Source of the DNA: a virus
DNA length: 64,000 nucleotides
Virus record (IMG/VR): IMGVR_UViG_3300023478_000001
Location: 7,323 to 71,322 of that record
Strand: one strand, 5' to 3'
In this document: piece by piece, positions 1,507 to 21,668 of the stretch
Numbering within the stretch: the first letter of the stretch is position 1
Layout of the letters: the number at the start of each line of letters is the position of its first letter
Made by a program: the position numbers and the translations under genes
The notes under the pieces: generated by a model
What the model was told of the DNA's origin: nothing
The model's database searches: none
The model's input: the letters and a program-made list of their open reading frames with translations, nothing else

Positions 1507-3037
1507 TTAAGATTTATGGAACACATAAATTGGTTCATACTTATAGATTTTATTTTTATGTTTTACCGAGTTTTTAATTCCTGTTTTAGATGGATCAAGT
1601 CCTATCATACGGGTCATTAACATTTTTATTTTTCCTTTGTATTCACATCCTAACTCTTTTAATATTTTTATAGAATCGCCTTCTAAATCAAAATAAGTAT
1701 CTTTACCAACTTTAATTGATGCTATATTCCATAAGATATATCTATCATTTTTCAAATATTCATAGATAGTAGTCAAAGTGGGTTTCAAAAAATTATCCCG
1801 CCAATTATCATAATCAGAATATTTATCCCATGATTGTCCAGTTCCAACATCGCCATATCGCTCTCTATTAAAGTATGGTGGTGATGTAAATGCAATATCT
1901 AGTTTACCTTTGTATTTTTTAAATTTTGGATTTTTATATATTAACTCTGAACCATCAGTAAATGTTTCGAATGTATTAGATTGTGATTTTACTGAAAAGA
2001 ACTTATTAAATGAATCTGAATGATTATCTATACAATTTTTATTATAAAAATCTGCAACATAATCATATCGTGATTTTTGAATTTCATCTATATAATTATC
2101 CGGATTTGGGTCTGTACCTACATAATGTACTTGTTTACGTGTACTCATCGCTCCAATTATTCTACCACCCCAACCAGCAGATGAATCATAAATTATTATT
2201 GGTTCATCCTGTTTAATATGATTTGTAAAATTTTCATATAAATATTTTGCAGTTAATGCAGGAAAGTTTACAGCAGGTTGACCACAACTTAATCTAAATA
2301 CTTGCAAGATTTTTGGAAATATACCAATAGTTTTATCATACCAACGTATTAAATATAAAAATTTAATAATTTTCCCACTCTTTAATGTTGTAGAGGGTTC
2401 AATCTCTCCCAAATTTGCAATTTGAGTACTATTTAACCATTTATTATCAACACACGTTTGTACTTGTTCTGCAGTTAAATATATTTCCATCAAATACATC
2501 TTTTATAAAATCAATACCATTTTGTCCATTCCAAAATTTATTTTCGGTGCGTTTTGTTACGATTGATCTTGACCAAGAATACATTGAATCGCGTTTTACA
2601 GCTCTTTTCATAATTCTAATAAACCTATCTTCAAGAGTAGGTTCAGCAAAATAATCATAAATTGATAATCCGCCATCAGATGATTTGCCACTAGATATTT
2701 TTGTTTTTAACATAGTTGGAAAAAACTGATTTATCACGGATGCATCTTTATTAAAATTTTGAATTATTCCAAGCGATTCTGTATCATTAGTTAAATCCTT
2801 TTCCAAAAAATTGCAATCATTTCCTTTTAATTTTCTAAATGATTTTATTATACCATCTTTGTTCCTTCCAATTACAGGTGGTGTACCATACACATCCCAT
2901 TGGTGAGTAACTTCATTACGTAATAGTTTGGCCCAATTCACAAATTCTGTATCAGTCATTTGTAATAATTGATGATACGTTGTATTCGATTTAAATTCAG
3001 AAAATCTGGAACGTTCATAAAAATAGTTTTTACTCAT
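1507..3037 (-). CDS. DNA amino-methyltransferase (SPPY), broken into ORFs 2447-3037 and 1507-2499 by a frameshift or deletion
   Basis: YDSSAGWGGR SAM motif and FTSPPYF catalytic motif; overlapping out-of-frame ORFs near 2450-2500. Confidence 0.8.
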
Positions 3038-3076
3038 TTATTATAATATTTGAAATTGATTTTCAATAAATATAAA

Positions 3077-3790
3077 TTACGAATTTACCTCTACTAAAAA
3101 ATAATCGGTTGTGTATTCGTCCACTTCAAAATGAATGTGAGCCAATCCTTGGGTTGAAATATTTAACGTTGCAGTTTTTGCTTCTTTATTTGCAACAAGA
3201 ATTTCTTTTAAGTATTTTGCTGAAAATGATATTGGTTTAACTTCATCTGTGGTTTCACATTCAACATCAATAGAAATTCTATTTGAGTTAATATTTTCAT
3301 ACCCAATAATAATTTGATGTTTATTATTTTTAGATAAAAATGTGAAATTATCTACTTCTGCAAGTGCTCCTTTTGCTTTAATGAATTTTGTAATAAAATT
3401 TTGGTCAAGTTTTAATTTTACATCAAACTCTGGTAATTGTTTTAAATCAGGTACGGTTGGTATAACTGATAAATCAGCCAGCATATAATTAATTGAGGTT
3501 GATTCATCCTTAAATTTGGCAGAAGCTACTTTATCGTTAACTACTGATAATTCAAAATCTATATCAGCACCAAGTACTCCTAGCATTTTTATTAATTTTG
3601 TAGTATCATACACTCCGAATGTTAAATCATTTTGGTCAAATCCAGTCATATTAACTGTACCAAGTACTGATTTATCATCTGAAATAAATGATGTATTTAA
3701 GGTATTGTTTGATGATTGCCATTTTACTGATTCTACGAGACCAGCCAAATTATACTTACTAATAAATCTGTTTAATTTTTGTTTTTCCAT
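3077..3790 (-). CDS. Sliding clamp (gp45/PCNA-like)
   Basis: 237 aa; FGVYDTTKL motif and PCNA-like C-terminus (FSAKYLKEIL...YFLVE); adjacent to the polymerase. Confidence 0.8.
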   Translation of the reverse strand: MEKQKLNRFISKYNLAGLVESVKWQSSNNTLNTSFISDDKSVLGTVNMTGFDQNDLTFGVYDTTKLIKMLGVLGADIDFELSVVNDKVASAKFKDESTSINYMLADLSVIPTVPDLKQLPEFDVKLKLDQNFITKFIKAKGALAEVDNFTFLSKNNKHQIIIGYENINSNRISIDVECETTDEVKPISFSAKYLKEILVANKEAKTATLNISTQGLAHIHFEVDEYTTDYFLVEVNS

Positions 3791-3931: not shown

Positions 3932-4885
3932 TTAAAAATTAAAAAATTTACTGGCAGTTTTTTGTTCATTAAGTACTAATCCCCATTTTAATACATCATA
4001 AAAATCTTGAAGTTTTCCTAATAATTCTCTTTCAAATATTTTTTCATGATTAATATAAGTATCTATAAATTTTGTTATTTCTGGTGGGTCTTTATATCCA
4101 GTAAATCCTACTGCATCTAATCCAAACGGATTACGTTTTAAATACACCCATTTTATTTTATCGCCGTTTTTCATTGGTGCGTATTTATATGGAGTTTTGT
4201 AATATTTTAATAAATCATTATACGCAATACCAGCTTTAACATGAGCAGGTGCACCCTTTTTAAAATCGAATAATTTTGTGCTCCCAACATTCATATATTT
4301 ACTTAGTTCCTTTACTGCAGAATTTTTAGCTATATCTGTGTTTGATAACTGTATCATCGAACTTTTGAATCCTAATATTATATCTGATATTGTACTTTGC
4401 GGTGTATCTTTTAATATTTCTATAAGTACTTTTGACATTAAATCTTGAAATGCTTTTGGAAATGATGAACGTATTACATCTAACCCTTTAACATCAAGTT
4501 TATCAACAGGTACACCATTATTAGAAATAATCCATTGAGCATATCTTTTTTTGGCTACCCAAAATCCTGCGCGTGCAACATATTCCTTTTTTATTTGTAA
4601 TCTGTGTTGTTGTACATTTAATATTTTATCTGCAAATATATCATAAAATTTATTTAAATAATTTTGCATTTCTCCTGCAATATTATCCACTTTTTTAGCT
4701 ATATTTGCAGGTGTGTCTTGTTCCCATTTAGGGTTTCGGTAGTCTAATAACGGTACTGCCGAAAAAAATACTGAATCTGTATCAATTTTCTCCCCGAAAG
4801 ATTAAACTAACGGGGAGAACGCATCGATATAGATATTGCTATCTACTGTAGCACCACCTATATCGAGTATTTTTTTTATTTTCAT
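3932..4885 (-). CDS. Family B DNA polymerase, C-terminal part (palm motif C and thumb), interrupted by a 42-nt insert with an in-frame TAA
   Basis: ATG 4885 gives MKIKKILDIGGATVDSNIYID[AFSPLV*SFGEKID]TDSVFFSAVP..., in frame with ORF 3932-4690 (KKRY, KGLD motifs). Confidence 0.88.
4781..4822 (-). other. 42-nt hairpin insertion in the PolB catalytic motif (candidate bypass element or micro-intron)
   Basis: 9-bp perfect stem (4788-4796/4811-4819) with a 14-nt loop holding in-frame TAA 4804-4802; flanked by ATC GAT and ATT GAT. Confidence 0.8.
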
Positions 4886-4901: not shown

Positions 4902-6674
4902 TTAATTTAAAACTAAATCATCATTTGGTTGCAATTCTTTAGCCGGTATTGTTGTTATAATTCCATTACGAGTTATAGTCATTTTAGTATTTGGACTAAT
5001 TTTAATAATTTTATTATTTTCTAACTCAATCTTCATCGGAGTTCCGCCAATTTCTTCATTATATTTAAGATTACACATATTCGCCGTTGACTTAATAATT
5101 AGCTGTCCTGTCGTTGTAACTGCTTCAGCATTTTCTCTATCATAAAAACGAAATGCGGGGAGACCCATTGTGCCATATAAACTATTAAGTAAAATTTTCT
5201 GTACAAGCTGTCGTTTTCCATAAAAATTATATTGTTCACTATCGCCAGATTTACCATATTTTTTCATTAAATTTTTATATTTTACTCGTTGATCAAACCA
5301 TAATGAAAGTATACCTGGAATACAACCTACTATATCTTTTCTGTACAAAACTCCATTAGTTGATACACTATAATCTTGCTCTTTTATAAGTTTAGCTAAG
5401 TTTTCCGAAGTTATAGTATTATTATCAATAGAATATGTTTTATTAGTATTATTTAAAAATTGTTGTGAATCCCAGTTAATAATTTTAGCAATTTTAGTTT
5501 CTGGCGAAATATTTAATGTCATAATAATAGATGGATACAATGATGTTAAATCTAAATCATATATCCAATCATGTTTACCAACTATTGGTTCTTTTACATA
5601 TGCACCAATAAATTTTCCCTTTCCCGCTTCTTTTAATGCTTTCATTTTTTCTCTTCTATCTGCAGGTTTATTAGGAGCAACTAAATTTTTACGTTTTAAA
5701 TAAGTTAATAATGCACCTTCTAAATATTTAGAAGAATATACAAAATCTTCATATGGTACATGACCTGAATGACAAATTCCTCTACATAAATCAATAAATT
5801 GTAGTTTCTTTTCTAATTTTACTACAATTTCAACATCTACTGTATTATATTCGACAAATTTATTAATATCTGTTTGAAATAAATCATCAAGGTTTCCTTC
5901 ATATTCAATTTTACCTTGATTTAGTTCAAGTTTACCAACGGTATCTAATCTATAATTAGGCAATTCATTATAATTGAATTTCTTATATAATGATAAATAA
6001 TCTAAGCAACTTACCCCCGCTAAAAAGAATCTTTGGCGATACGGTGAATAAAATGATTTTCCAATCGGTGATAATCTATTTGCGTAGTCTATTCCTAATA
6101 TTCGTTTTATACGATTAAATAAGTATGGAATATCAAAATAGTCAATATTCCAACCTGTTATAATATCTGGTGCTATATCTTCATATATTTCTAAAAATTT
6201 CAAACACATAGCTATTTCAGTTTTAAACGGTAACACTAATGCCTTTGATGTTTGTTTTGCTTGCATTTTACCGGTTTTATCCATTACAAGTACAACATAT
6301 TTATTACTAATATTATCGTGCAACCCAATAGCAGTCAGCTCGTTAGTTGATTCATTAACATTAGGTAATCCACTTTCCATTTCTACCTCAATATCAAATG
6401 TAAATACTTTAATACCAGTTGAAATTTCATCTGAATCTGTGTAAGTATCTACGAGTACTCTTGTAGTTTCAGGTACATCAGATTCAAAAAGATTAATGTC
6501 ATCCTTTGAAAACTTATATATCTTAGTTAGTTTATCACCATAAATTGATGTGTAACTACCATTAATATTTTTTTCATATGCGTATCGAGAGTATGGAAAC
6601 GAAATATATCCGTTAGTGTCATCCCAGATATGCATTAAATTCTTCTCCCTCTGATAATATATATTTTTATAAAT
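4902..6674 (-). CDS. Family B DNA polymerase, N-terminal part (3'-5' exonuclease, motifs A and B), ending in a Hint-like tail
   Basis: FDIE, GWNIDYFD, YDLDLTSLYPSII, KILLNSLYG; frame is open upstream of ATG 6635 to a possible ATT start at 6674. Confidence 0.93.
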   Translation of the reverse strand: MYKNIYYQREKNLMHIWDDTNGYISFPYSRYAYEKNINGSYTSIYGDKLTKIYKFSKDDINLFESDVPETTRVLVDTYTDSDEISTGIKVFTFDIEVEMESGLPNVNESTNELTAIGLHDNISNKYVVLVMDKTGKMQAKQTSKALVLPFKTEIAMCLKFLEIYEDIAPDIITGWNIDYFDIPYLFNRIKRILGIDYANRLSPIGKSFYSPYRQRFFLAGVSCLDYLSLYKKFNYNELPNYRLDTVGKLELNQGKIEYEGNLDDLFQTDINKFVEYNTVDVEIVVKLEKKLQFIDLCRGICHSGHVPYEDFVYSSKYLEGALLTYLKRKNLVAPNKPADRREKMKALKEAGKGKFIGAYVKEPIVGKHDWIYDLDLTSLYPSIIMTLNISPETKIAKIINWDSQQFLNNTNKTYSIDNNTITSENLAKLIKEQDYSVSTNGVLYRKDIVGCIPGILSLWFDQRVKYKNLMKKYGKSGDSEQYNFYGKRQLVQKILLNSLYGTMGLPAFRFYDRENAEAVTTTGQLIIKSTANMCNLKYNEEIGGTPMKIELENNKIIKISPNTKMTITRNGIITTIPAKELQPNDDLVLN

Positions 6675-8520: not shown

Positions 8521-9423
8521 TTATTCTTTTTTATTTTGTGTAGAACGTAAATATTTTATTGAATCTTGATAACTACCTCCCAACGAAAAAAACGCTATTT
8601 TACCTTTTAATTTATGAATATTTTGGTCTAACCATTTCCATGATTTTTTTTCCCAAAATTCGTTGCAATCAAATGGTACAATATAATCTTCCATCATATC
8701 ATTGAAATCGAACTCTGGTTTGTAAAGATGAATATTATTTTTATCACCTGCATAATTTTTATTTAAAATTTTACGTGTTGAATTAATAGTAGACATCGTA
8801 ATACTATGTACCTGACGTTTGTTTTCTACAATATCTTTCCAATTATCATATTTTAAAAATCCTTTAATTAATCCTGCAGCAGTTACACCACTTCCTATTC
8901 CAATAATTAAATGGTCAAAATCATTAATTTTCATGATTTCTTCCATTTTATCTTGCATATATTTTACATAAACTGGATGATTAAATGCGTGTGGTAGCAT
9001 TTGCCAGCCTTTTTTCTTATTTATACCTTTTAATTTATTTTCCATTAATGCCATCATATTTGGTTTTAACGGAAACATAGTAGCACCATTTTCTTTAATT
9101 CGTTGTAATAATTCAGGTGGATATGATTTTGAATCTGGATATGCTGAAATATATTCTATATCATGCATTGGACATAATTTTGATAAAGTCCAACCCGTCC
9201 AACTTCCATATACTGATAAATGTACCAATGGCTTATTTTTATCAATCGCATTAGACATTAATAATTTATCTATAGCTTCAATTTTACCCCAACGTGGATA
9301 TTCATTTCCATCTCCTACCAAATCGCCACGTATTACACTAACTTCTCTTCCATTTAGCATAAATTTATCAATTCTAAATGCTTCTTTAGGCAATTTATAA
9401 TAATTCATTTTTTTTGTATCCAT
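8521..9423 (-). CDS. PLP-dependent fold-type II enzyme (ACC deaminase/D-Cys desulfhydrase-like)
   Basis: IRGDL...WGK (candidate PLP Lys) and GIGSGVTAAGL phosphate-binding loop. Confidence 0.7.
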   Translation of the reverse strand: MDTKKMNYYKLPKEAFRIDKFMLNGREVSVIRGDLVGDGNEYPRWGKIEAIDKLLMSNAIDKNKPLVHLSVYGSWTGWTLSKLCPMHDIEYISAYPDSKSYPPELLQRIKENGATMFPLKPNMMALMENKLKGINKKKGWQMLPHAFNHPVYVKYMQDKMEEIMKINDFDHLIIGIGSGVTAAGLIKGFLKYDNWKDIVENKRQVHSITMSTINSTRKILNKNYAGDKNNIHLYKPEFDFNDMMEDYIVPFDCNEFWEKKSWKWLDQNIHKLKGKIAFFSLGGSYQDSIKYLRSTQNKKE

Positions 9424-11537
9424 TTGTATACTCCTGTATTATATGTTTCTATCGGATTTCGTAACTCTTTATGAGAAAATCCATTCATTTTTCTAAAATT
9501 ATCTTGAATGACATGGATCATTTTTTTTCTATTATTAAAATTTATAGTCGTATCATTTAAAATAATGTGTTCAATATAAACTTTAAAATTTGTACCTTTT
9601 TGAAACGCTCGTTTTTCTTGATTGATTACCTCTTTCGGTAAGTATGGTGTAAACGCATCAGCTAATGGTAATTTCCATTGAGTACCGTGTGATAATACTT
9701 CATTTGGTAAGTTTGTTGTATAATTAAGAAAATCTGTATCAAAAAATGGACATCTTAATTCTATTGTTCCATAATTCATAAATACAGTATTACCTCTTAA
9801 TAAATTACCATAATGTTGTTTTTCAAATAAGTTTTTCCTAATATCAGACCAATCTGGCTTTTTACTAAACATTCGTATCATTCCGTATGAACCATATGAT
9901 TCGTCTGAGCCTTCTCCGCTAAACGCAACTTTAATTCCATCTTTACACATTTCTTCGGCTATAAACGATTGTAAAATACCAACTTCTGTTTGTACCGTTG
10001 ACGGATATTCTATTACTTTAATTGATTCCAAAAATCGTTTTTTTAATATATTTGGGTCATTTGGAATATTAACTTCAACTAATTCAACATTCAAATATTT
10101 TGCTACTATTCTAGCGAAATGTAAATCTCTTGATTCTTCATCAAATTTTGCAGTATAAGCTTTGATAGTTGGAATTCGAGCTGAAAGTAAGTAAGTAATT
10201 ACTGCAGAATCAATTCCGCCACTTAAAGATGTTGCTATTGGCACATCTGATAATAATCGTTTATCAACTGCGTTACGTAATAAATTATATGTGATTAGTC
10301 CAACTTCTTCGCGTGTATTAATCTTTGTAGCAGTATTAGTAAAATTAAAATAAAAATTATTATGAATTTCTAACTTATCGTTATTTAAATTAATTTCAAT
10401 CAATGAATTTTTAGGTACGATACGTGCAATTGCAGTTGGATGAATACTATTAATAGATTTTAACTCACTAGCAACAATTGTATGGGTAGTTCCATTTTGA
10501 TATATATACAATGGTAATTTACCTACCCAATCGCGAGAAATTAATAATTTATTATTATCATAAATAACAAAAGAAAACATTCCGTCTAATCGATGCAATT
10601 CGTTTTCTTTATACAAATAAAGAATAATTTCTGAATCTGATGATGATTTGAATGTATAGCCTCGTTCTTCATATTCTTTGCGTAGTTGAGGATAATTCCA
10701 GATTTCGCCATTAACAATTAAATAAACACCGTCTGACTCCATTGGTTGCCTACCTGAGTCAGATGTATCATTTATAGATAAACGATTATGTCCTAATACT
10801 ATATGATGATTATTAATATCAAATTCATTAATACCGCGTGAATCATTACCTCTATGGGCAATAGTTTCAAGCATATTATTTACATTATTCATATCGCCTA
10901 AATGACATGAGCAAGCCAATATTGAAACTTTCCCTAATTCCTGATTGCTTTCCTTAGCTAAAAATTTACCCATATCAACTAACGCGGAATAATCAGCATA
11001 TCCACTTTTAGATACTCTGTTTGAACGTATGACTGATGTTAGATATAGTTTACCATTTCTAGGTTTAACATCTATTCCTAGCATACATGGTTGAGAATAT
11101 GGGTTTCTTGCGTCTCGCGATGGATCAAATATTATCATTTCACACCGTTTAACTGCTTTTCCTGTTTTTAATATCTTAATTACGTTTTCAACTTGGTTAA
11201 ATGTTCCTTGCCATGCAATCATTCTACCCCAGTATGAATCGTGCCAATGTTTTTTAATAAATTTATATTCTAATTTTGAATCGGTATCTATAAATTTATT
11301 CTTAAATTTAATAAGTTTTGGTTCTACAAATGTAACAGTTCGTGCATAATCAATTCTATCATCACCCATGATTTCTCTAAATGATGGTTCAAACCATGAA
11401 TCCTCTTTAAATTCTGTAATTTCTGTCATTACATTAAGTTCTTCGGTAAGATTACCTACTTTTACTCCATGCTTTAATAAATGATTGGCTGTTTTACACC
11501 ATCCATCGCCAGGTGAAGTTGCTTTTATTACTGTCAT
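9405..11537 (-). CDS. Thymidylate-synthase-like pyrimidine-modifying domain fused to an asparagine-synthetase-like amidotransferase
   Basis: N-terminal ~215 aa has PC and RSNRVSKSGYADY; C-terminal part has HRGND, GHNRLSI, NGEIWN, SLSGGIDS, SGEGSDE; lacks the AsnB N-terminal MCGI. Confidence 0.85.
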   Translation of the reverse strand: MTVIKATSPGDGWCKTANHLLKHGVKVGNLTEELNVMTEITEFKEDSWFEPSFREIMGDDRIDYARTVTFVEPKLIKFKNKFIDTDSKLEYKFIKKHWHDSYWGRMIAWQGTFNQVENVIKILKTGKAVKRCEMIIFDPSRDARNPYSQPCMLGIDVKPRNGKLYLTSVIRSNRVSKSGYADYSALVDMGKFLAKESNQELGKVSILACSCHLGDMNNVNNMLETIAHRGNDSRGINEFDINNHHIVLGHNRLSINDTSDSGRQPMESDGVYLIVNGEIWNYPQLRKEYEERGYTFKSSSDSEIILYLYKENELHRLDGMFSFVIYDNNKLLISRDWVGKLPLYIYQNGTTHTIVASELKSINSIHPTAIARIVPKNSLIEINLNNDKLEIHNNFYFNFTNTATKINTREEVGLITYNLLRNAVDKRLLSDVPIATSLSGGIDSAVITYLLSARIPTIKAYTAKFDEESRDLHFARIVAKYLNVELVEVNIPNDPNILKKRFLESIKVIEYPSTVQTEVGILQSFIAEEMCKDGIKVAFSGEGSDESYGSYGMIRMFSKKPDWSDIRKNLFEKQHYGNLLRGNTVFMNYGTIELRCPFFDTDFLNYTTNLPNEVLSHGTQWKLPLADAFTPYLPKEVINQEKRAFQKGTNFKVYIEHIILNDTTINFNNRKKMIHVIQDNFRKMNGFSHKELRNPIETYNTGVYKWIQKK

Positions 11538-11620
11538 AAATATTTTTTGAATTAACTTAAATATACGAAAATTTTTTCATATATCCTATTTTTTTTGATT
11601 ATATTGAAATATTCTTTTTT

Positions 11621-11803
11621 TCAAATGTGTTTCCAAGTAGTTCGATTTACTATTTGTCCCACATTCCAAGTAGTTATTTTATAGTTTCGTGCAATAATTT
11701 TGTGAGAAAACCCCTTAGCATGAAGTTCTCGTATTTCCAATACTTGTTTGCTGGATAATTTAGCATTCCAGTGAGTCTCGCCTCTTAATCTATTTCCGCC
11801 CAT
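11621..11803 (-). CDS. Small HTH protein (HNH-endonuclease C-terminal-like DNA-binding module)
   Basis: RGETHWNAKLSSKQVLEIR...IARNY...TWKHI motif. Confidence 0.7.
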   Translation of the reverse strand: MGGNRLRGETHWNAKLSSKQVLEIRELHAKGFSHKIIARNYKITTWNVGQIVNRTTWKHI

Positions 11804-12150: not shown

Positions 12151-13185
12151 TTATACTATTTCGCACGCATTTCCAGCACATGCTAATTCCCCAGTTAAAT
12201 CAGTAGTATCACGTTTTTCTATAATTTGTGTTACATCAATATCTTTTAATGTTTCCATTAATCGTTCGTATTCTTTTTTTGTAATATCCTGAAAAGGTGC
12301 CTGTTTATAAGTACCACCGTTATATGGCAATACAGATAATCCATTGTAAACTCTACGATTTTTCCACATCCATTCGCCTATTTCTTCCCATTCATCATCT
12401 TTTATAGAAACCGTGCATGATACATTATTTTGATTTTGACCTTTACGATATCCTTCGTGCACCCAATTTTCTGAAATATGTTTTACTCTTTCTAGTAAAT
12501 CAATTGGCGATTCATGACGAGTTATAGCTCCAATCGGTGCCTTTTGTGGTACTGATATAACTGCTTGTGTTTTTGGATTAAAAAATTCATCCTCAATTAA
12601 TTCAGCATGATTTTTCTTTAAGTATTTATATATTGATTCATCTTTACCAATTCGTACTCGTCTAATATAATAATCATTATGCCAAGCGTGAATTCCACTA
12701 CTTGTACCTAATACTAAACTTGTAGTACCCGCAGGTTTTGTTGTAGTTGTTCTGGATGCAGGATTAATTCCTATTATCTTGGCAATTACTTTATTAGTAT
12801 CATTTACAATATTCGCAGTTTCTTTAAAATCTAGTTTCATATTAGATTCTGATGCTATACCCGTCATACTTACTCCAATTAATGCATCTTTTTCGGTCGT
12901 TTTTCTCCAAATATCACGTAAATAATGAAAATCAGTATATCCTGCTTGTAGTGTACCTAAGAATGCTGCTGCTTTAGCTCTTTTATTAAAATCATCTTGA
13001 TTTTTTACTGAAGCCATATTAATTTCAGTTAAATTACAAAATTGAAATGGCCTTAGTGAAATTTCACAATTATGGACTAATAAGCCATCAGCAAAAAAGT
13101 TATGATTATCAGCTACCTCAATATCGTATACATCAGTATTTTTTTCTATTGTTATTTTTTTTATCTTAATTCGTTTTAATTTCAT
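12151..13185 (-). CDS. nrdJ: Class II ribonucleotide reductase, part 3 (39-aa IntC plus C-extein)
   Basis: VYDIEVADNHNFFADGLLVHN|CEISLRPFQFCNL; TTTKPAGT; C-terminal ACAGNAC. Confidence 0.92.
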   Translation of the reverse strand: MKLKRIKIKKITIEKNTDVYDIEVADNHNFFADGLLVHNCEISLRPFQFCNLTEINMASVKNQDDFNKRAKAAAFLGTLQAGYTDFHYLRDIWRKTTEKDALIGVSMTGIASESNMKLDFKETANIVNDTNKVIAKIIGINPASRTTTTKPAGTTSLVLGTSSGIHAWHNDYYIRRVRIGKDESIYKYLKKNHAELIEDEFFNPKTQAVISVPQKAPIGAITRHESPIDLLERVKHISENWVHEGYRKGQNQNNVSCTVSIKDDEWEEIGEWMWKNRRVYNGLSVLPYNGGTYKQAPFQDITKKEYERLMETLKDIDVTQIIEKRDTTDLTGELACAGNACEIV

Positions 13186-13281
13186 TTTGTATTCTTCTTA
13201 TTGGTTTCCATATTTTATCTTTCCAAAATCCTTTAATTTCAACAATTTTTGTAATTTCATTTTTTTCGTTATATATAAAAA

Positions 13282-14313
13282 TTAAATTTTCAATAAAACA
13301 TCACTTTCGGTTAAGTCTTTTGCTTCCACGTATCCACGATTTTCAGTAAACACCTTATGGTCAGGTGTCATCTTTATAATTGAACCATCTTCTAATTCCA
13401 ATGAAATAACATCAGCGTGTTTTCTAGTTAGTAACCCATTCGTAATCTGTTTTTTTTCAACTTTACAAGTAGATGTATTATATGATAAAATATTTGGTGC
13501 AGTACCTCCCCGTTCATGTAATTCTACCAGTTCTTTAATAGTCCAGGTCTTATCAGTATCGGTACTAATTACGGTTTCTGGTGCCAAACAACATGGATTT
13601 GTACCCCATTCTTGATCATTGGTAAAAAATATACCGGGCTCGCCTGCACCAGATTCTTTAATTCGTTCCCAAATTCCATTAAATTTTTGTTTGCGAATTT
13701 GATGTCGTAATATAACAACACTATTGTTGGCTCTACCACGCTGAGGATTCCGTACATACCAATCACCAGTTTTGCATGCTAGCATTTCGGTATCATTTAA
13801 ATTAAATAATGATATCATTGCTGCTCTACGAATACCACCTGCTAATACTGCATCTGCAATATGACACATAATATCGTGTGATTCTAAAGTTGTTAGTTGT
13901 GTTCTATCTTGTTTTTCACGCAGCATTCCTTCGATTTTAGTAATAGCCAATCTAAGTGGTTCGGGGCCAGGAGCCTTTCCTCCTGCAGTAATAAGTAATG
14001 CTCCTTTTTCTCTAATATCACTATAATCAAATTGAATATGCGCACTAATTTTTCCTGTATAGGATTTAAATAATGTTTTTATTGCATCTGACCATCCTAT
14101 GATACTATCTTGAATAACATATTTCCTATTATATTCATAATTTGGTTTTCTAATTTCTGGTAACTGTTCTACATGATGCTTTTGTACGCTATAGCCAACC
14201 CCCGTATTATGTACTACTTCTCCAGCTGCTAAACAGAAATTTTGTGTTCCTTTGATTGATAAATCATAATAATTACGAGTATCTTCAATAAATGTTTTTT
14301 TAATTATTTTCAT
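13282..14313 (-). CDS. nrdJ: Class II ribonucleotide reductase, part 2 (36-aa IntC, extein, 102-aa IntN)
   Basis: VVHN|TGVGYSVQ...AGGIRRAA...GTNPC|CLAPET...TPDH. Confidence 0.92.
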   Translation of the reverse strand: MKIIKKTFIEDTRNYYDLSIKGTQNFCLAAGEVVHNTGVGYSVQKHHVEQLPEIRKPNYEYNRKYVIQDSIIGWSDAIKTLFKSYTGKISAHIQFDYSDIREKGALLITAGGKAPGPEPLRLAITKIEGMLREKQDRTQLTTLESHDIMCHIADAVLAGGIRRAAMISLFNLNDTEMLACKTGDWYVRNPQRGRANNSVVILRHQIRKQKFNGIWERIKESGAGEPGIFFTNDQEWGTNPCCLAPETVISTDTDKTWTIKELVELHERGGTAPNILSYNTSTCKVEKKQITNGLLTRKHADVISLELEDGSIIKMTPDHKVFTENRGYVEAKDLTESDVLLKI

Positions 14314-14536
14314 ATTATAATTCTAATAATAATTTTTTATGTATATTTTTTATCCCAGTTTTAATAATATCAGTTTCCCACCAAACAAATACCTTTTTGC
14401 CAGTAAGTTGCTCTATACGTTGGATTCTGGTTGCATCCGTTTTCCAAGTTTCTCCTACAAGTTTACCTCGTATTACATCGGTTTCGTTATATAAAGCTGG
14501 GTTGCCGTGTCAATAATCACCATATAATAAAAACAT
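14314..14536 (-). pseudogene. Remnant of a Vsr/DUF559-like homing endonuclease between intein halves
   Basis: YGDY*HGNP...VWWETDI; truncated, with TGA at the Trp position. Confidence 0.7.
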
Positions 14537-14538
14537 AA

Positions 14539-15192
14539 TTATTTAGGAATTTCACTTTCATCAGCAAATTTTATGTCATCATCTTCGGTTAAATGTTGCG
14601 CTTCCACCCATCCTCTATTTGTTGTTAAAAATTTATGATCAGTGGTACATTTTATCACCTTGCCACTTTCTATTGTTAATTCCATTTTTGGTTTTGATGC
14701 AGTTGGCGTCATTCCAGCAAAAGTAGGATGCACCCAATTATATTTACCTGTCGTTTCATCGAGGGTCAATATATAATCATCAGTTGTTACATCAATAATA
14801 CGTTTATCACCATCTTTTGTTTTTATCAAAGTGTCAGGGTCAAAGCATCCGCCTAACAATAAAAACATAGTTTCTGAAAAACTATATATTGAATCTACCG
14901 GCAGGAATGCACAATTATAGATTCTTGCGTTATTAAGTTCAATTGGTCTGCCACCAAATTGCATTGACCTCATTGAGGGTAACACTTTTTTTGTATAAAC
15001 AAACTCCTCGTATAACTTAGTTATATCATCCTTTAATTCAGGATAAGATTTTATATGCATTTTTTTATTACGGTTTACAATTTCTAACCACGTTTCTCTA
15101 CGGTTCTCAATAGATAAATGTCTTGCGTATTTCATGTGTACTATAATATCGCTAAGTATTTTTTTATCTAACTCTACATTAGTATTGTTCAT
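14539..15192 (-). CDS. nrdJ: Class II ribonucleotide reductase, part 1 (N-extein plus 102-aa IntN)
   Basis: RETW...LPSMRSMQFGG...YNCAF...LLLGG|CFDPDT...TTDH. Confidence 0.92.
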   Translation of the reverse strand: MNNTNVELDKKILSDIIVHMKYARHLSIENRRETWLEIVNRNKKMHIKSYPELKDDITKLYEEFVYTKKVLPSMRSMQFGGRPIELNNARIYNCAFLPVDSIYSFSETMFLLLGGCFDPDTLIKTKDGDKRIIDVTTDDYILTLDETTGKYNWVHPTFAGMTPTASKPKMELTIESGKVIKCTTDHKFLTTNRGWVEAQHLTEDDDIKFADESEIPK

Positions 15193-15532: not shown

Positions 15533-16333
15533 TTATGTATTAAAAAAATCTTTAAATTTCATGTTGAGTTTATATTTTTGATAATTGTGGTTAAATACAT
15601 TCATATTAAAGGTTGGCATCGTTATTTCATTATATTTTCCAAGCGATACTCGTTTTTCAAAAATTAAATCTATATCCTTTGGATATTTTTTATTAGTATA
15701 TTCTGGATATTGATTTAATATTTTCTTGCTTGATTTATTTATAGGATATATGTATCTAAACATTAATCCTCTAATTCTAACTATTCCTTTGTATTCACAA
15801 AAATCATGAGTTAACCAAAATATTTTTTCTTTGTTTTCATATATAGCATTTTCTATACATAATTGTTTTGCGCTTCGTGGATGTATTTTTTCATGCGTTT
15901 CGATATCCATATATACACTTGTTTTAAAACTACCTAAATAACGAAAATTAGATGCTTGATAAACATAACCGCATTTTCCCATTATTCCATCAGCCATTGT
16001 ATATAAAAATTTTATATCTAATGATGTTTTTATCCATTTTATTAATAAACTTGTTGACTGAGAGCCAAAATTACTTTGATTTTTACTCGGTAAAAAACAC
16101 ATTTTGCCGATTTCTAAATAATCAGAACTTTTGAAATTATGCTTATAAAATATTTTATGAATTGTACCAAACGGTTGAGTTCCCCAACCCAAAGTTACAA
16201 CACCAACTAATTCTTCATTTTCAAAATAGCCAAGATAATGTTTTGTTAATCTAGGTAAAATTTTACTATAATGATATTTTTGTATAAAATCAATAGCTCT
16301 TTGCGGATAAATAGGTTTAATTATTAATTTCAT
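15533..16333 (-). CDS. Mom-like GNAT-fold DNA modification protein
   Basis: FIQKYHYS, LVGVVTLG, TMADG...GYVYQASNFRYLG. Confidence 0.8.
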   Translation of the reverse strand: MKLIIKPIYPQRAIDFIQKYHYSKILPRLTKHYLGYFENEELVGVVTLGWGTQPFGTIHKIFYKHNFKSSDYLEIGKMCFLPSKNQSNFGSQSTSLLIKWIKTSLDIKFLYTMADGIMGKCGYVYQASNFRYLGSFKTSVYMDIETHEKIHPRSAKQLCIENAIYENKEKIFWLTHDFCEYKGIVRIRGLMFRYIYPINKSSKKILNQYPEYTNKKYPKDIDLIFEKRVSLGKYNEITMPTFNMNVFNHNYQKYKLNMKFKDFFNT

Positions 16334-17728
16334 AAATCGAAAAATTTATTTGATTTTTTATTTTGAGCTGGAGTTGCTGATTCTTTATCTAAAACTTGAA
16401 GAGCGGTTTCAATTCTTGCTTTTGCTATTTTAAAATAATCAGCATTATCATCTATACCAATAAAATCATATCCAAGTTGTTTGCACGCTTTTCCTGTACT
16501 ACCACTACCCATAAATGGATCTAATACAATTCCGTTTGGTGGCGTTACCATTCTTACTAAATATTTCATTAGTTTGGTTGGTTTTAGAGTCGGATGATTA
16601 TTCTTTTTTGGTAATACGGAATTTCGTTCACTTCCATCTGGTCTGAATTTATTAGTGTTCATTCCATAAAGTTGTCCATTATCACGTTTTGCTGATTCTT
16701 TATACTCGAAATCATCTAATCCTTCATCCCTATCTTTTTTACTGGCTTTTGCACAATAGAAAAATCTCGATGCGTTTCCACTATAGCCGTGTTGATTATT
16801 TTGATTTGCGAACCCATTTAAAAAATTTGTATTAGTATCACTTTTATAACTAGATTTATCAGATGCTACTTTACCACTTTTTGTATCTGGAAATAAATCA
16901 GTTACTTCTTCACTACCATCATGTATAAAGTTTGCTGGCCATCTGCCATTGGGTTTTATAACATCCACCCTTTCAGATTTATTTTTAGTCATTCCCCACG
17001 TTTGATTATTAATATCAGTATCACGCTGAGACCGATTAATAGTACGAAGCTGAGAATTATCAATATCCAAATTTAATGGCACTCTACTTGCATCAATATT
17101 TATTCCACCTGTACCGTGTTTTATTACATTTTTAACTATCGTATTTTCTGAAAGTGGTTTTCTTGCCATTACAATTGGTTCATGAGCTGGTTTTAATGAT
17201 GTTCCCCAGCCTTCCCATTCTGAATTTCCCTTTGTAAGTATTTCCGCGTCATATCCAAAGTGTTTTATATTATTTCTATTAGCTGGGTCTGTAAGATACC
17301 CTGCACCTTTTGTTTTAACTGTCTGAACATCACCTCTTATTTTTTCACCGATTATTTCTCGTTTATTACCAAGTTGTTTATCAATCGCTTTACCAATATT
17401 ATAATTTTTTGGAAAACCGCTTCCGTAAACCCACATTATTTGGTCTCGTATTTCAAACCCCGCATCCTCAATATTTACAACCATTCTATGATAAGTTCTA
17501 GCTCCAGAAAATGATAATAAATATCCACCCGGTTTTAATACTCGTAAACATTCTTTCCATAATTCTACGGTTGGAACGTCATAATCCCATTTTTTACTCA
17601 TAAATTTTAAACCATATGGTGGATCGGTTACAATACTATCTACGGAGTTATCTTCTAATTCTTTCAATTTTATTTCAGATTTACCTAATAATATTTTCAT
17701 AAATCGAAAAATTTATTTGATTTTTTAT
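16328..17728. repeat. 34-bp exact direct repeat bracketing the 456-aa MTase gene
   Basis: tttcataaatcgaaaaatttatttgattttttat at 16328-16361 and 17695-17728. Confidence 0.9.
16330..17700 (-). CDS. DNA amino-methyltransferase (beta class, DPPY)
   Basis: VTDPPYG...HPTLKP...LDPFMGSGST. Confidence 0.92.
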   Translation of the reverse strand: MKILLGKSEIKLKELEDNSVDSIVTDPPYGLKFMSKKWDYDVPTVELWKECLRVLKPGGYLLSFSGARTYHRMVVNIEDAGFEIRDQIMWVYGSGFPKNYNIGKAIDKQLGNKREIIGEKIRGDVQTVKTKGAGYLTDPANRNNIKHFGYDAEILTKGNSEWEGWGTSLKPAHEPIVMARKPLSENTIVKNVIKHGTGGINIDASRVPLNLDIDNSQLRTINRSQRDTDINNQTWGMTKNKSERVDVIKPNGRWPANFIHDGSEEVTDLFPDTKSGKVASDKSSYKSDTNTNFLNGFANQNNQHGYSGNASRFFYCAKASKKDRDEGLDDFEYKESAKRDNGQLYGMNTNKFRPDGSERNSVLPKKNNHPTLKPTKLMKYLVRMVTPPNGIVLDPFMGSGSTGKACKQLGYDFIGIDDNADYFKIAKARIETALQVLDKESATPAQNKKSNKFFDL

Positions 17729-18398
17729 CTTTTATCATTAATCGTTCACTCATTACATCAAAATATTCCTGTAATTGTTCAATTCCAATAAAATCTCTAT
17801 TTAAGTTTTTACACGCAACTCCAGTTGTACCGCTTCCTGCGAACATATCCAATACAATATCATTTTCATTTGTATGTATTCTTAATAACCGTTCTAGTAA
17901 TTCCACTGGTTTTTCAGTTGGATGTTTTCGTTTTTTACTACTTGGACTTGAATACTTAAATGTTTTTAATTGAGTAGCATATCCTGTATTATTATAAGTA
18001 CAGTTTTTTCCTCTTACATATACCATAAATTCTAAATTTGAAATATATTTTCCATTACCAAATGGTACTGGATTTGGTTTATCCCAAACTAGCAATGTTG
18101 TTGAAAACCCTAAGTTTTCCCAATAACTCATTATTTTTGATATTTGTTTATTTGAGCAAAATACAACTAAATTTACTATTTTGCAAACACGTTGAATTTC
18201 ACTAAATATAAGATTCATATTAAATCCATTACTGATGAAATTTATATGAGTATCTTTTACCAGTTTTCGTTGCGCGAATTCACTTTTACCACCACCATGA
18301 TTTTCTAATTTATATGGAGGGTCTACTAATATAAAATCAATCGAGTTATTCGGTATATTTTTTAATTCGTCATAACAGTTTCCATGTATTAATTTCAT
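17697..18398 (-). CDS. DNA amino-methyltransferase (beta class, DPPY)
   Basis: LVDPPY...HPTEKP...LDMFAGSGTT. Confidence 0.92.
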   Translation of the reverse strand: MKLIHGNCYDELKNIPNNSIDFILVDPPYKLENHGGGKSEFAQRKLVKDTHINFISNGFNMNLIFSEIQRVCKIVNLVVFCSNKQISKIMSYWENLGFSTTLLVWDKPNPVPFGNGKYISNLEFMVYVRGKNCTYNNTGYATQLKTFKYSSPSSKKRKHPTEKPVELLERLLRIHTNENDIVLDMFAGSGTTGVACKNLNRDFIGIEQLQEYFDVMSERLMIKDKKSNKFFDL

Positions 18399-18920: not shown

Positions 18921-19457
18921 CTAACCCATATTTAATAAACCAGACAACAATGTATGCATAAAACTATACATATTAAAAAAAAGTAGAAATGGAAGTAACA
19001 CTCCCATGTTTTCAAGATATTTTTTATGTAAAAGTTTCTTTTGCATGAGTGCTCCGTTATTTGATTCTTTAGTAGTTAATATTCCATTCGATGAAGTGCC
19101 ATCATAAACTTGAATAAATCCAGAGTTTGTATCCATTTTACAAGGAAATGTGATACCATCTGGCCCAAATCTGTTTTTCACAATATGAACCCTTGCAGTA
19201 TTGTTTAATTTATCTTTTGCTTTTCTACTCCAACTCATTATAAAATCTGCATTCATTACCTTTGCATATGAATCAGCTATTTTATCTGCTTCAATTATTT
19301 CACTATCAATTGCTGAATTATGAGTGTAAATCTCATTAGCAAAAAACATATGAGTATCATCTACTGTAATATCAACCGTTTCTTCTTCACCAATCAGTTG
19401 AATTGATTCTATTTCATCTAATTCAAAAGATTCTGTATTTAATTTATGTTCTTTCAT
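18921..19457 (-). CDS. gp41/DnaB-like helicase, part 3 (47-aa IntC plus C-extein)
   Basis: VDITVDDTHMFFANEIYTHN|SAIDSE...KNRFGPDG. Confidence 0.9.
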   Translation of the reverse strand: MKEHKLNTESFELDEIESIQLIGEEETVDITVDDTHMFFANEIYTHNSAIDSEIIEADKIADSYAKVMNADFIMSWSRKAKDKLNNTARVHIVKNRFGPDGITFPCKMDTNSGFIQVYDGTSSNGILTTKESNNGALMQKKLLHKKYLENMGVLLPFLLFFNMYSFMHTLLSGLLNMG

Positions 19458-19558
19458 TTATAAAATTTAAACATTTATCTATAATCTGTTGTTTATCATT
19501 TTTTCCACTTCTTGTTTTTAAAAATTATCTTTTTGTGTTTTAAGTTTTTTTGTTAAGA

Positions 19559-20752
19559 TCATTTTTCCATTTTTTTTAAACCATCTTCTTTTCCATATTT
19601 TTCAATATAATGATTTTCTGAAAAGGTTGCTTTCTTTTTTGAAACTTTTTTTGTAAAAAGCTTATCACCTACTTTTAGACCAGTTTCAATTGATTTTTGT
19701 TTGCCGTACTGTGTTGGGAAAAGATGTCTTGCAGAGCATTTAACTACTTTACCACTTTTTAATTTTATTTTATAAACTGGTTGCGTTTTCTTTTCAAATA
19801 CATGAGTCACATTTTTATATCCATTATGTGTAAGAACTTTATCACCTTTCTTAATACTACCGATTTCGACCTTACCCAATGGCGTATCTACTTTGGTATC
19901 CAATGTTAAACATCGATTTGTCTGGCTGGCTGTCCAGACCGGAATATTCTTCATTCCGCTTAATCCTCGTAATTCAATATAAACTCCGCCTTGCTCTTGA
20001 TATGTTGAATCATTTCTACCAGTTGAAGATAACATTAAATCCGCATAATCAATAATGATTAAATCTGGTTTTTTACCAGCTGCTATCATTTGTTCAATAT
20101 GTAATTCTATTTGCTTAGTACTCACTCCACGCGGTGGAAAATACTTAATCATTATATTACCTTGTAACGCCTTTATTTTAGAATATATCTCAGCTTGTTT
20201 ATCTTTTAATTGGTTTGTTGCAATATGAGTAATTACAGTATCATATCTAGCACCCACATAAGATTCAGAAAGTTCCATAGTATAATGAGCTACTTGTTTT
20301 CCTATACTCGATGCATATGCACCAATACAAGTTAAAATCCAAGTATTATGTGATAATATACCATTGCCATAAAAACATTGAACTTTATCAACCATTAAAT
20401 CATATAGAATTTTAATTTTTCCTTCTTTAATTTTTCTAATTTTTGCAGTACCGTTTTCAGTTTCTATAATATCATTTTCAATATTAATATCCTTAACAAG
20501 TTTCCACTCTCCATTTACTTTCAATTTATGTTCCCAACCGCATTGCAATGTTTTATTATTAGTAAAATATAAACGTATGGATTTTTGAGAAACGGTTCTA
20601 CAAATTGATGGAACTGAATAGTATCCATATGGGGTTTTCACTTTTACATCATAATGCATTTCATGAATATATTCAGCCTTTTCAGGAATATTATTATTTT
20701 TGAAAAAGGTATCCAACCGTACAGTTTCTCGTACTTTACGTGTATGTATCAT
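19559..20752 (-). CDS. gp41/DnaB-like helicase, part 2 (136-aa IntC, extein, IntN)
   Basis: GNGILSHN|TWIL...IIIDYADL...TASQTNR|CLTLDT...SARHLF. Confidence 0.92.
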   Translation of the reverse strand: MIHTRKVRETVRLDTFFKNNNIPEKAEYIHEMHYDVKVKTPYGYYSVPSICRTVSQKSIRLYFTNNKTLQCGWEHKLKVNGEWKLVKDINIENDIIETENGTAKIRKIKEGKIKILYDLMVDKVQCFYGNGILSHNTWILTCIGAYASSIGKQVAHYTMELSESYVGARYDTVITHIATNQLKDKQAEIYSKIKALQGNIMIKYFPPRGVSTKQIELHIEQMIAAGKKPDLIIIDYADLMLSSTGRNDSTYQEQGGVYIELRGLSGMKNIPVWTASQTNRCLTLDTKVDTPLGKVEIGSIKKGDKVLTHNGYKNVTHVFEKKTQPVYKIKLKSGKVVKCSARHLFPTQYGKQKSIETGLKVGDKLFTKKVSKKKATFSENHYIEKYGKEDGLKKMEK

Positions 20753-21668
20753 TTAAAAATTTTTTTATTTTATGTTTAACTATTTCAGCATTTTCATTAT
20801 AGTCATGTTCCCATATAATTAAAATATCATATCCACTCTGTTTAAGTTTAGATATTTTATTGATATCATAATTTCGTTTTATTGTAACATCTTCTTTATA
20901 TGTTGGGTGTATATCGCCGGTTTCAAATAAACGATTACTACAATGCCAATAGTCTCCGAAATATTCTATAATTTTATTATCAACTTTAATATCAACATTA
21001 TACCCGATAACAAATTCATTAGCTACTGCATTATATCCCAAATCTTTTTGTACAAAATCAAATAACTCAATTTCTGCTAAGCTTTTATAATTTGTCGTAA
21101 AATTACCAAATCTACTAACTAATTTGTCAGCGCCCAATTTTTCAGAATATCGCTTCATTGAGTTTGATATTTTTAATTTGCTTTTATTACTATGAATTTT
21201 GCCTGTAAATTTTTTTGATTTTGCAGATAGCGATGTTTGAGTTTTACTTATTTTTTCAATAGCATCCTTCTCCGAATATCCTTTGTTTATCCAAAATTCT
21301 ACTCTAAACGATGATCTTTTGTTTCTATCTGATTTGGGAGCTGCAGCAGATTTATTTGCATTTTTAGTTTGAATTTCGCTAACTTTTCGTATAGCTTCTT
21401 CCTTTACATATCCTTGCTTAATCCAATAGTTGTAATCAAAAATACTAGATTTATTTTTCTTATATTTATCTATCCATTTTTTCTGCTTAAATCGCTCCTT
21501 CCACATCTTAGATAAATTCTGCTTTTGGTATTCTTGGGTTGTGTGTACAGTAGCTACATTATATAATAATTTATAATCAGCAATATTCATATCGTGTTTA
21601 CGTGTAATATGGCTTACAAGAGATTTTCCTACAAATCCACAAATTTTACATACGTAAAATTTTACATA
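20736..21668 (-). CDS. Homing endonuclease (Vsr/DUF559-like) between intein halves
   Basis: IIEYFGDYWH...IIWEHD; frame is open upstream of ATG 21590 through DYVKFYVCKICG...SHITRKH (Zn finger). Confidence 0.85.
   Translation of the reverse strand, partial: YVKFYVCKICGFVGKSLVSHITRKHDMNIADYKLLYNVATVHTTQEYQKQNLSKMWKERFKQKKWIDKYKKNKSSIFDYNYWIKQGYVKEEAIRKVSEIQTKNANKSAAAPKSDRNKRSSFRVEFWINKGYSEKDAIEKISKTQTSLSAKSKKFTGKIHSNKSKLKISNSMKRYSEKLGADKLVSRFGNFTTNYKSLAEIELFDFVQKDLGYNAVANEFVIGYNVDIKVDNKIIEYFGDYWHCSNRLFETGDIHPTYKEDVTIKRNYDINKISKLKQSGYDILIIWEHDYNENAEIVKHKIKKFLNDTYT

Follow-up and report, generated by a model that had tools for sequence, protein, structure and literature searches.

Pyrimidine hypermodifications known from phages start from 5-hydroxymethyl, 5-hydroxy or 5-carboxymethyl handles. 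In the 5-carboxymethylcytosine system CmoA/CmoX/CmoY of Synechococcus phage S-B43 (Nat Commun 2025; PMC12783734), SpCmoY has been shown to join glycine to the 5-carboxymethylcytosine of DNA, and carboxamide formation from glutamine-derived ammonia was proposed for the glutaminase-bearing CmoY class (PMC12783734). In the thymidine clusters of phages M6 and ViI, decarboxylation of amino-acid:thymine conjugates in DNA was demonstrated for two gene products, gp52 of M6 and gp226 of ViI, and K36 of gp52 was proposed as the internal-aldimine lysine; the co-occurrence of amidoligase and glutamine-amidotransferase domains with such clusters is mentioned there as a remark only (PMC8989533). Among enzymes with the thymidylate synthase (TS) fold, Asp177 marks the cytidylate enzymes, Asp/Glu143 the hydroxymethylases and Asn169 the flavin-dependent 5-hydroxy-dCMP (dCMP, deoxycytidine monophosphate) synthases (PMC13326640). 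Here we describe a gene cassette in a 64,000-nt stretch of viral DNA (positions 7,323 to 71,322 of IMG/VR record IMGVR_UViG_3300023478_000001; hereafter the window), which encodes a TS-fold paralog, an amide ligase and a pyridoxal 5'-phosphate (PLP) enzyme. On balance we think it probable that this is a modular phage cassette for pyrimidine hypermodification, most likely of cytosine at C5. Its product would most likely be an undescribed decorated cytosine in phage DNA that evades bacterial defences.

In its normal layout the cassette consists of a 232-aa TS paralog, a 501-aa glutamine-dependent ligase that starts from Cys1 and an overlapping PLP enzyme of approximately 280 aa, usually with an adjacent gene for a methyltransferase (MTase)-like protein with an SPPY motif. 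The three core genes are translationally coupled. A profile of diverse TS-like proteins retrieved 77 loci in a second scan of IMG/VR; 63 unique loci were left after removal of duplicate TS genes, and 11 of these were dropped for short flanks. The 52 loci counted have at least 1.5 kb upstream and at least 3 kb downstream of the TS-like gene. A ligase gene is present in 51 of them (40 AsnB-type and 11 PP-loop-only, the latter approximately 300 aa with a SxSGGxDS motif), and a PLP-like gene in 49. The other three carry a radical S-adenosylmethionine (rSAM) gene, so that a PLP or rSAM gene is found throughout (52/52). In this gene-neighbourhood survey, the check proposed in the preliminary description of the locus, co-occurrence of the genes is both tight and wide. 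The SPPY MTase-like gene is found in 46/52 loci, immediately upstream of the TS gene in 27. The cassette is kept down to 37–50% TS identity, the phage contigs with the 63 distinct IMG/VR loci reach 375 kb in length, and near relatives of the ligase in metagenomes number in the hundreds.

Composition and order of the genes vary. Alternative layouts are TS-PLP-PPloop (L141), AsnB-rSAM-TS (L074) and TS-AsnB-rSAM-PLP (L126), and gene fusions join a TS-like part to rSAM (P0125, 676 aa) and rSAM to N6_N4_MTase (L097, 753 aa). At one locus (L134), up to four tandem MTase-like paralogs stand beside the core. Three loci (L146–L148) come from bacterial metagenome-assembled genomes (MAGs) labeled Ignavibacteria, Kapaibacterium and uncultured bacterium (the latter a 3.28-Mb contig), and contain, in this order, genes for MT-like, TS-like, PP-loop and rSAM proteins; at one of them, a gene for a permease of MacB/FtsX type lies 4.7 kb upstream. 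The adjacent SPPY gene, the rSAM and PP-loop-only variants and the CmoY and gp52 precedents were all omitted from the preliminary description. No published description of the cluster was found in the literature searched, outside which lay the supplementary lists of PMC12783734 and PMC8989533.

The window itself departs from the normal layout. Its open reading frame (ORF) at 9405–11537 on the minus strand encodes 710 aa, with a TS-like part (residues 1 to approximately 217) followed by ligase domains in one reading frame, and had been described as a single TS-AsnB polypeptide. This fusion is a contig-specific deletion of 88 nt and not the design of the family. The closest database proteins are 501 aa long and extend over only 69% of the 710-aa ORF; their N-terminus is MCGI, with the Cys1 of N-terminal nucleophile (Ntn) glutaminases. 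The fusion is absent from all 46 related IMG/VR loci, 45 of which have a 232-aa TS-like ORF (by pattern search) and 36 a separate MCGI-start ligase ORF, beginning 1 nt past the TS stop codon in 33 of the 36. The ten loci without an MCGI ORF have a different ligase (six) or are ended by the contig end (four). DNA alignment to three related loci (L001, L004, and L006) identified 88 nt, kept in all 46 related loci, that the window lacks. Their loss takes the last 16 codons or so from the TS-like gene and 14 codons from the start of the ligase gene, among them that of Cys1, the catalytic residue. As 7 nt are common to both breakpoints, the two copies of a repeat of 7 nt enclose the deletion (Table 1).

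The undeleted form was found in run X1, in which 95% of the sampled words of the stretch are present (none in runs X2 and X3). Contigs from this run match the window at ≥99%. One match ends at 10885 and another at 10879, both running on into sequence that is not that of the window, and no X1 contig bridges the deletion junction. A 28-letter overhang, translated by hand on the minus strand, encodes VATIGYTKS, the residues that follow MCGI in P0001, a near-identical protein with Cys1 present from a 122-kb contig; the other overhang gives a lysine-rich tail resembling the TS-like C-termini of relatives. The X1 contigs therefore continue undeleted, and in this run, which contains the same phage, the intact two-gene form is present at high depth. 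The deleted form is possibly a real minority variant, and a repeat as short as 7 nt makes it doubtful that an assembler mis-join is the sole cause of the deletion. Judged by its sequence, the fused protein as assembled would have lost glutaminase activity; a ligase without glutaminase is nevertheless viable in the cassette, as the PP-loop-only forms found in nature show. The "fusion protein" is unsuitable as a design template, and the record is corrected here.

Other irregularities were observed in the same gene. P0001 has an intact ligase start, but a different stretch of 44 residues is missing in its glutaminase domain (corresponding to approximately 10440–10570 of the window), and the run X1 contigs break also at 10565/10574. 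It appears that population variants or assembly breaks arise easily in the ligase gene.

Within the TS-like part, the motifs quoted in the preliminary description (QPCML and RSNRVSKSGYADY) are present. By sequence, the relatedness of the window ORF to TS is weak: PF00303 is unlisted for the ORF at E ≤ 0.1 and gives no match in the window's genome record at E ≤ 1, and the matches in PHROGs are phrog_160 (3.3e-8) and phrog_5131 (1e-7). For the intact ortholog, alignment and modeling together make the relationship clear. It scores 70.6 bits with TIGR03283 (methanogen-type TS, cutoff 174.55) and 21.7 bits with PF00303 (cutoff 24.3), and hhalign to E. coli ThyA gives 90% probability. The AlphaFold2 (AF2) model (predicted local distance difference test score, pLDDT, 92.5) has the TS fold. 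In Foldseek the CMP hydroxymethylase MilA is the best match (template modeling score, TM, 0.70), followed by the dCMP hydroxylase AfhB of phage HY126 (TM 0.63–0.69), and ThyA proteins and the T4 dCMP hydroxymethylase (gp42, TM ~0.5) rank below these; E-values for MilA, AfhB and ThyA range from 1e-11 to 1e-8. MilA is also the only solved structure matched by sequence (E 0.0015). The family is small, since of 276 proteins found by phmmer at E ≤ 1e-3 among 1.84 billion representatives, only 15 reach E ≤ 1e-30. A predicted complex of the paralog with the PLP enzyme scored 0.01.

The paralog is an extra gene, as ThyA or ThyX is also present in all five near-complete relatives checked (G001–G005): canonical ThyA in G001–G003 (300–316 bits), partial ThyA in G005 and ThyX in G004. 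Ordinary dTMP synthesis by the paralog was rejected on the same ground.

Residue conservation was assessed in an alignment of 22 family members. P150-C151 (equivalent to C146 of ThyA), R171-S172 (R166-S167), a lysine at +6 and D182 at +11 are invariant (22/22), confirming that the catalytic PC is kept. Among other ThyA positions, L143 is replaced by Ser, H147 by Met and C168 by N/Q/M/C. The folate-binding D169 is Arg in 16 and Ala in 6 of the 22 sequences, and never Asp or Asn, in line with the reported change of the usual RSxD Asp to Arg. An Asp at the cytosine-specifying N177 position, also claimed before, is likely: it follows from the ungapped +11 spacing and from the phmmer alignment to MilA, but it is uncertain because hhalign opens a 3-residue gap there. 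Of the three residue rules given above, the family follows that for Asp177 only (PMC13326640). Two observations favor a cytosine substrate: D182 is invariant, and in the fold comparison the cytidylate enzymes MilA and AfhB come out on top. The loss of Asp169 and the gain of Lys and Arg in the predicted pocket suggest a co-substrate that is non-folate and probably anionic.

The ATP-dependent AsnB-like domain reported to follow the TS-like part was recovered, with matches to GATase_7 (2.7e-32) and Asn_synthase (3.7e-39) from residue ~245 of the 710-aa ORF. An intact ortholog retains the E. coli AsnB residues Cys1, R49, N74, E76, D98, E348, R387, and K449 as well as the SGGxDS loop. Four cassette ligases score 203–230 bits against gp124 of Streptomyces phage TurkishDelight, the nearest isolate-phage relative of the AsnB-type form, compared with 135–182 bits against E. 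coli AsnB. In all four, and in gp124, K376 is replaced by L/E and D384 by N; in AsnB, we take these two to be aspartate-binding residues. The gene for gp124 comes after two ParB-like genes. It stands between the genes for a homolog of C5-cytosine methylases, which matches PF00145 at 1.1e-53, and for a CmoA-like protein, which stays below the cutoff of TIGR00740 with 89.5 bits. This architecture is shared by CmoX/CmoY/CmoA clusters with a glutaminase-bearing ligase (PMC12783734). The PP-loop-only form has matches in four phage records only, and the two looked at were S-B43 and Staphylococcus phage vB-SscS-F1. In S-B43 a "putative asparagine synthase" gene is situated between a methyltransferase-domain gene and a DNA-cytosine methyltransferase gene, and the layout in vB-SscS-F1 is the same. 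Judged by product name and position, the S-B43 gene is a candidate for SpCmoY. By sequence, both ligase forms match CmoY-class proteins as homologs.

The PLP enzyme, reported as an overlapping fold-type II protein, was confirmed as such by its 19-nt gene overlap and predicted fold. The PALP score of the 300-aa ORF is 27.3 bits, under the cutoff of 35, and phrog_7093 ("threonine dehydratase") is matched at 6e-18. Its AF2 model (pLDDT 91.2) is of fold-type II, with CJ0600, Fn1220, D-cysteine desulfhydrase and the 1-aminocyclopropane-1-carboxylate (ACC) deaminase homolog 1j0a as Foldseek matches (E ~1e-11, TM 0.63–0.69). Of the 65 phage records found by tblastn, most belong to Pseudomonas yuaviruses and to Bordetella phages, and the match in phage M6 is gp52 (YP_001294560). 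Alignment of the two by hhalign is full-length (99.8%, E 2.2e-27, 258 columns), takes in the C-terminal PF(D/P)CN...FWN(I/L)G block, and places K46 of the window protein on K36 of gp52. By this alignment, M6 gp52 and the PLP enzyme are homologous over their full length.

Table 1. Positions of cassette genes and associated features in the window.
Feature	Position	Strand	Remarks
Paralogous methyltransferase-like protein, 330 aa	1507..2499	-	N6_N4_Mtase 30.3 bits
SPPY amino-methyltransferase-like protein, 414 aa	7119..8363	-	Frequent cassette neighbor; DFSMGWG box and SPPY motif, weak DNA-methylase matches
Predicted fold-type II PLP enzyme, M6 gp52 family, 300 aa	8521..9423	-	19-nt overlap with ligase gene; hhalign, AF2
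Predicted AsnB/CmoY-type glutamine-dependent amide ligase, first 14 codons including Cys1 missing as assembled	9405..10885	-	Domain matches, gp124 relationship
Deletion junction	10879..10892		88 nt gone between 7-nt repeat copies; two genes joined in frame
Predicted TS-family paralog (cytidylate type), cut short here (last ~16 codons of 232-aa gene gone)	10886..11537	-	'PC' Cys, 'RSNR', invariant K(+6), D(+11)
Promoter-like TTGAAA-N15-TATAAT, 60 nt upstream of ATG	11598..11624	-	By eye only

In the window, 157 nt separate the PLP enzyme gene from the 414-aa SPPY gene, and the 330-aa methyltransferase-like protein may also be associated with the cassette. The early promoter that had been attributed to the operon is not supported: a promoter scan returned 35 promoter-like sites against 42 expected, without enrichment and with none upstream of the ATG, and the element in Table 1 was read by eye only. 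The suggestion that the AsnB-like domain might amidate a Mom-made adduct was rejected for want of co-occurrence, as a Mom-like gene lies in the flanks of only 3 of the 46 related loci and none was found in the complete relative G001 at E < 1e-3.

From sequence and by analogy with homologs, we infer the chemistry of the cassette as a whole as follows. The TS paralog would attack C6 of dCMP (or CMP) via Cys151 and attach a carbon side chain at C5. Its donor would not be the usual methylene-folate, because the folate-binding Asp169 is Arg/Ala and an invariant Lys lines the predicted pocket, and is probably an anion with a carboxylate. Once the nucleotide is part of the DNA, the ligase would adenylate the side-chain carboxylate and convert it into a carboxamide with glutamine-derived ammonia; PP-loop-only forms may use free ammonia or an amine instead. 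The gp52-like PLP enzyme would decarboxylate or otherwise trim the alpha-amino-acid end of the same side chain, and the SPPY protein may methylate an exocyclic or amide nitrogen. The assignment of the TS step to nucleotides and of the ligase and PLP steps to DNA is by analogy with homologs. The resulting cytosine, amino/amide-substituted and neutral or cationic, would block host nucleases. Of the new amino/amide-pyrimidine pathway originally put forward, the co-occurrence, the extra TS gene, the CmoY and gp52 homology and the preference for cytosine thus speak in its favor, and the fusion, the promoter and the Mom connection have fallen away.

Several points weigh against this pathway. The same carboxylate cannot undergo amidation as well as decarboxylation; the two reactions need separate carboxylates, and therefore a two-carboxylate side chain or branch pathways. 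Genes for dCTP removal are not consistently present, with dCMP deaminase in 2/4 and MazG in 1/4 complete relatives. The gap opened by hhalign weakens the N177D assignment, and the L008 ortholog of the ligase scores 287.2 bits with TIGR01536 (asparagine synthase), above the NCBI cutoff of 267.1. No isolate phage with the TS paralog family or the cassette was found. The TS-like/rSAM (P0125) and rSAM/MTase (L097) fusions and the chromosomal copies in MAGs also fit a model in which every step takes place on DNA.

A bolder proposal, which we regard as possible but doubtful, is that the 232-aa TS paralog represents a new catalytic class, forming a C-C bond between cytosine C5 and a non-folate, carboxylate-bearing electrophile, after which the ligase would amidate and the PLP enzyme trim the handle. 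The electrophile could be, for example, an alpha-keto or imino acid, giving an amino-acid-like handle. If true, a carboxamide/amine cytosine not seen before would be widespread in aquatic T4-like jumbo phages, and would also be used by Ignavibacteria/Kapaibacterium-type genomes.

The model just mentioned, in which SPPY paralogs target a sequence after replication and the TS-fold, ligase and PLP/rSAM enzymes all act on the flipped-out base, appears unlikely to us. It is in keeping with the characterized homologs CmoY and M6 gp52, which act on DNA (PMC12783734; PMC8989533). Besides the two fusions, which in L097 join rSAM to an N6_N4_MTase, the up to four tandem MTase-like paralogs flanking the core in L134, the MT-TS-PPloop-rSAM cluster on the 3.28-Mb bacterial contig and the failure to find a consistent dCTPase-type gene are in its favor. 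To our knowledge, however, the characterized TS-fold enzymes all act on mononucleotides; MilA and AfhB, which are nearest in fold, bind CMP or dCMP, and the phosphate-binding Arg-Ser pair is kept in the paralog. The opposite arrangement, implied by the preliminary description, would complete the whole pathway on free nucleotides before replication and then polymerize the finished dCTP analog. Tight translational coupling of the three core genes and the position of the cassette among ribonucleotide reductase (RNR), thioredoxin and DNA polymerase genes are compatible with this, but we hold it to be improbable, given that the ligase and PLP homologs were shown to act on DNA and that a search, not exhaustive, identified no dedicated dNMP kinase or dCTPase.

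Two further explanations dispense with a modified DNA base, and both seem to us very improbable. Ordinary auxiliary metabolism by a thymidylate synthase, an asparagine synthetase and a threonine/serine dehydratase would agree with the TIGR01536 score above cutoff and with the source annotations ("asparagine synthase," "cysteine synthase," "threonine dehydratase"). It is made unlikely by the canonical ThyA or ThyX present elsewhere in the genomes, by the modular exchange of parts (a PP-loop-only protein for the ligase in 11/52 loci, rSAM for the PLP enzyme in 3) and by the ligase substitutions D384N and K376L shared with the CmoY-type protein; the loss of D169 in the TS paralog and the membership of the PLP enzyme in the gp52 family also argue against it. 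Alternatively, the cassette might make a diffusible modified nucleoside or nucleotide, a natural product of MilA or bacimethrin type, an idea prompted by MilA as the best solved-structure match in both sequence and fold and by the copies in bacterial chromosomes. A diffusible product is less likely because the relatives CmoY and gp52 act on DNA; moreover, a DNA-MTase-like partner accompanies the cassette, which lies within phage replication modules. We retain, as the preferred explanation, a cassette that modifies cytosine at C5 in phage DNA, with the TS step on nucleotides and the tailoring steps on DNA.

The source record of the window is an IMG/VR virus fragment of 71 kb, with a CheckV completeness estimate of ~31% and a G+C content of ~28%, and the window genes are on the minus strand throughout. 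The cassette is surrounded by RNR, thioredoxin and DNA polymerase genes. A megablast search of the cassette region against phage isolates gave no match; judged by DNA polymerase, the nearest isolate is Microcystis phage Mel-JY01 (51% identity), which is without the cassette. Several genes in the surroundings are in pieces. The RNR gene is divided over three ORFs (14539–15192, 13282–14313, and 12151–13185, minus strand) that match successive parts of phrog_367, and at each piece boundary (window 12151–15192) the ends resemble those of inteins ("CLAPETV..." and "...VHNC"), which points to inteins that are split or splice in trans. The family-B DNA polymerase gene comprises two ORFs (4902–6635 and 3932–4690, minus strand), and the DnaB-like helicase (18921–22444, minus strand) three pieces, with a homing-endonuclease-like ORF (20736–21590) between two of them. 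Just upstream of the cassette, a 60-aa ORF (11621–11803, minus strand; phrog_6156, 7e-8) matches only the C-terminal helix-turn-helix part of HNH/homing endonucleases and is probably a remnant. In L008, a MazG-like pyrophosphohydrolase ORF (2888–3229; G001 198026–198202) is inserted between RNR subunit genes, approximately 5 kb upstream of the cassette; this is the one found in 1/4 complete relatives. At least five genes of DNA-modification type are present on the fragment besides the cassette core, two SPPY proteins included. A Mom-like gene (phrog_1384, 6e-32) is followed directly by two N6_N4 DNA methylase genes (window 15533–18398, minus strand).

Compared with the described systems, the cassette is closest in its ligase to CmoA/CmoX/CmoY (PMC12783734), with which it has in common an AsnB-family ATP-dependent amide ligase predicted to tailor a carboxylate on cytosine; the sole isolate-phage relatives of both cassette ligase forms are located in such clusters. 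Unlike these, the cassette has a TS-fold paralog and a PLP or rSAM enzyme in place of CmoA and the C5-methylase, neither of which was found (TIGR00740 0/5, PF00145 0/5) in the window's record and four complete relatives. The ligase family is thus common to both, but the cassette must arrive at its carboxylate handle by another route. Like the M6/ViI thymidine clusters (PMC8989533), the cassette is a combinatorial cluster with PLP and rSAM tailoring enzymes beside a TS-family gene, and its PLP enzyme is a full-length gp52 homolog by alignment, including the proposed aldimine lysine. In contrast to M6/ViI, where the base is thymine, the base here is probably cytosine, and the rSAM proteins are class-B-like and not M6 gp53-like. 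Single-sequence queries of low power with M6 gp51, gp53 and gp54 gave no match in five records or in G001, and with them no homolog of the 5-hydroxymethyldeoxyuridine (5-hmdU) DNA kinase or the amino-acid:DNA transferase aGPT-Pplase2 was found.

With MilA, T4 gp42 and the 5-hydroxy-dCMP synthases AfhB and RB69 gp48 (PMC13326640), the paralog shares the predicted TS fold, the catalytic Cys, the Arg-Ser clamp and, in all likelihood, Asp177. It differs from them at position 169, which is Arg/Ala where folate enzymes have Asp and the 5-hydroxy-dCMP synthases Asn, in the invariant Lys at +6, and in the change of Leu143 to Ser and not to Asp/Glu; in addition, it is only 232 aa long and appears to be of a methanogen-type lineage (TIGR03283 70.6 bits, below cutoff). 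A new base, if true, would matter for restriction and CRISPR evasion, for sequencing bias in viromes and as a source of enzymes for DNA functionalization. Within phage pyrimidine hypermodification, we rate the novelty as that of a new gene combination and a new TS subclass: the cassette brings together a TS homolog, a ligase of CmoY type and a PLP enzyme of gp52 type, three enzymes whose pathways were discovered separately, and as its TS paralog lacks the folate-binding Asp, a handle chemistry different from the known ones is indicated.

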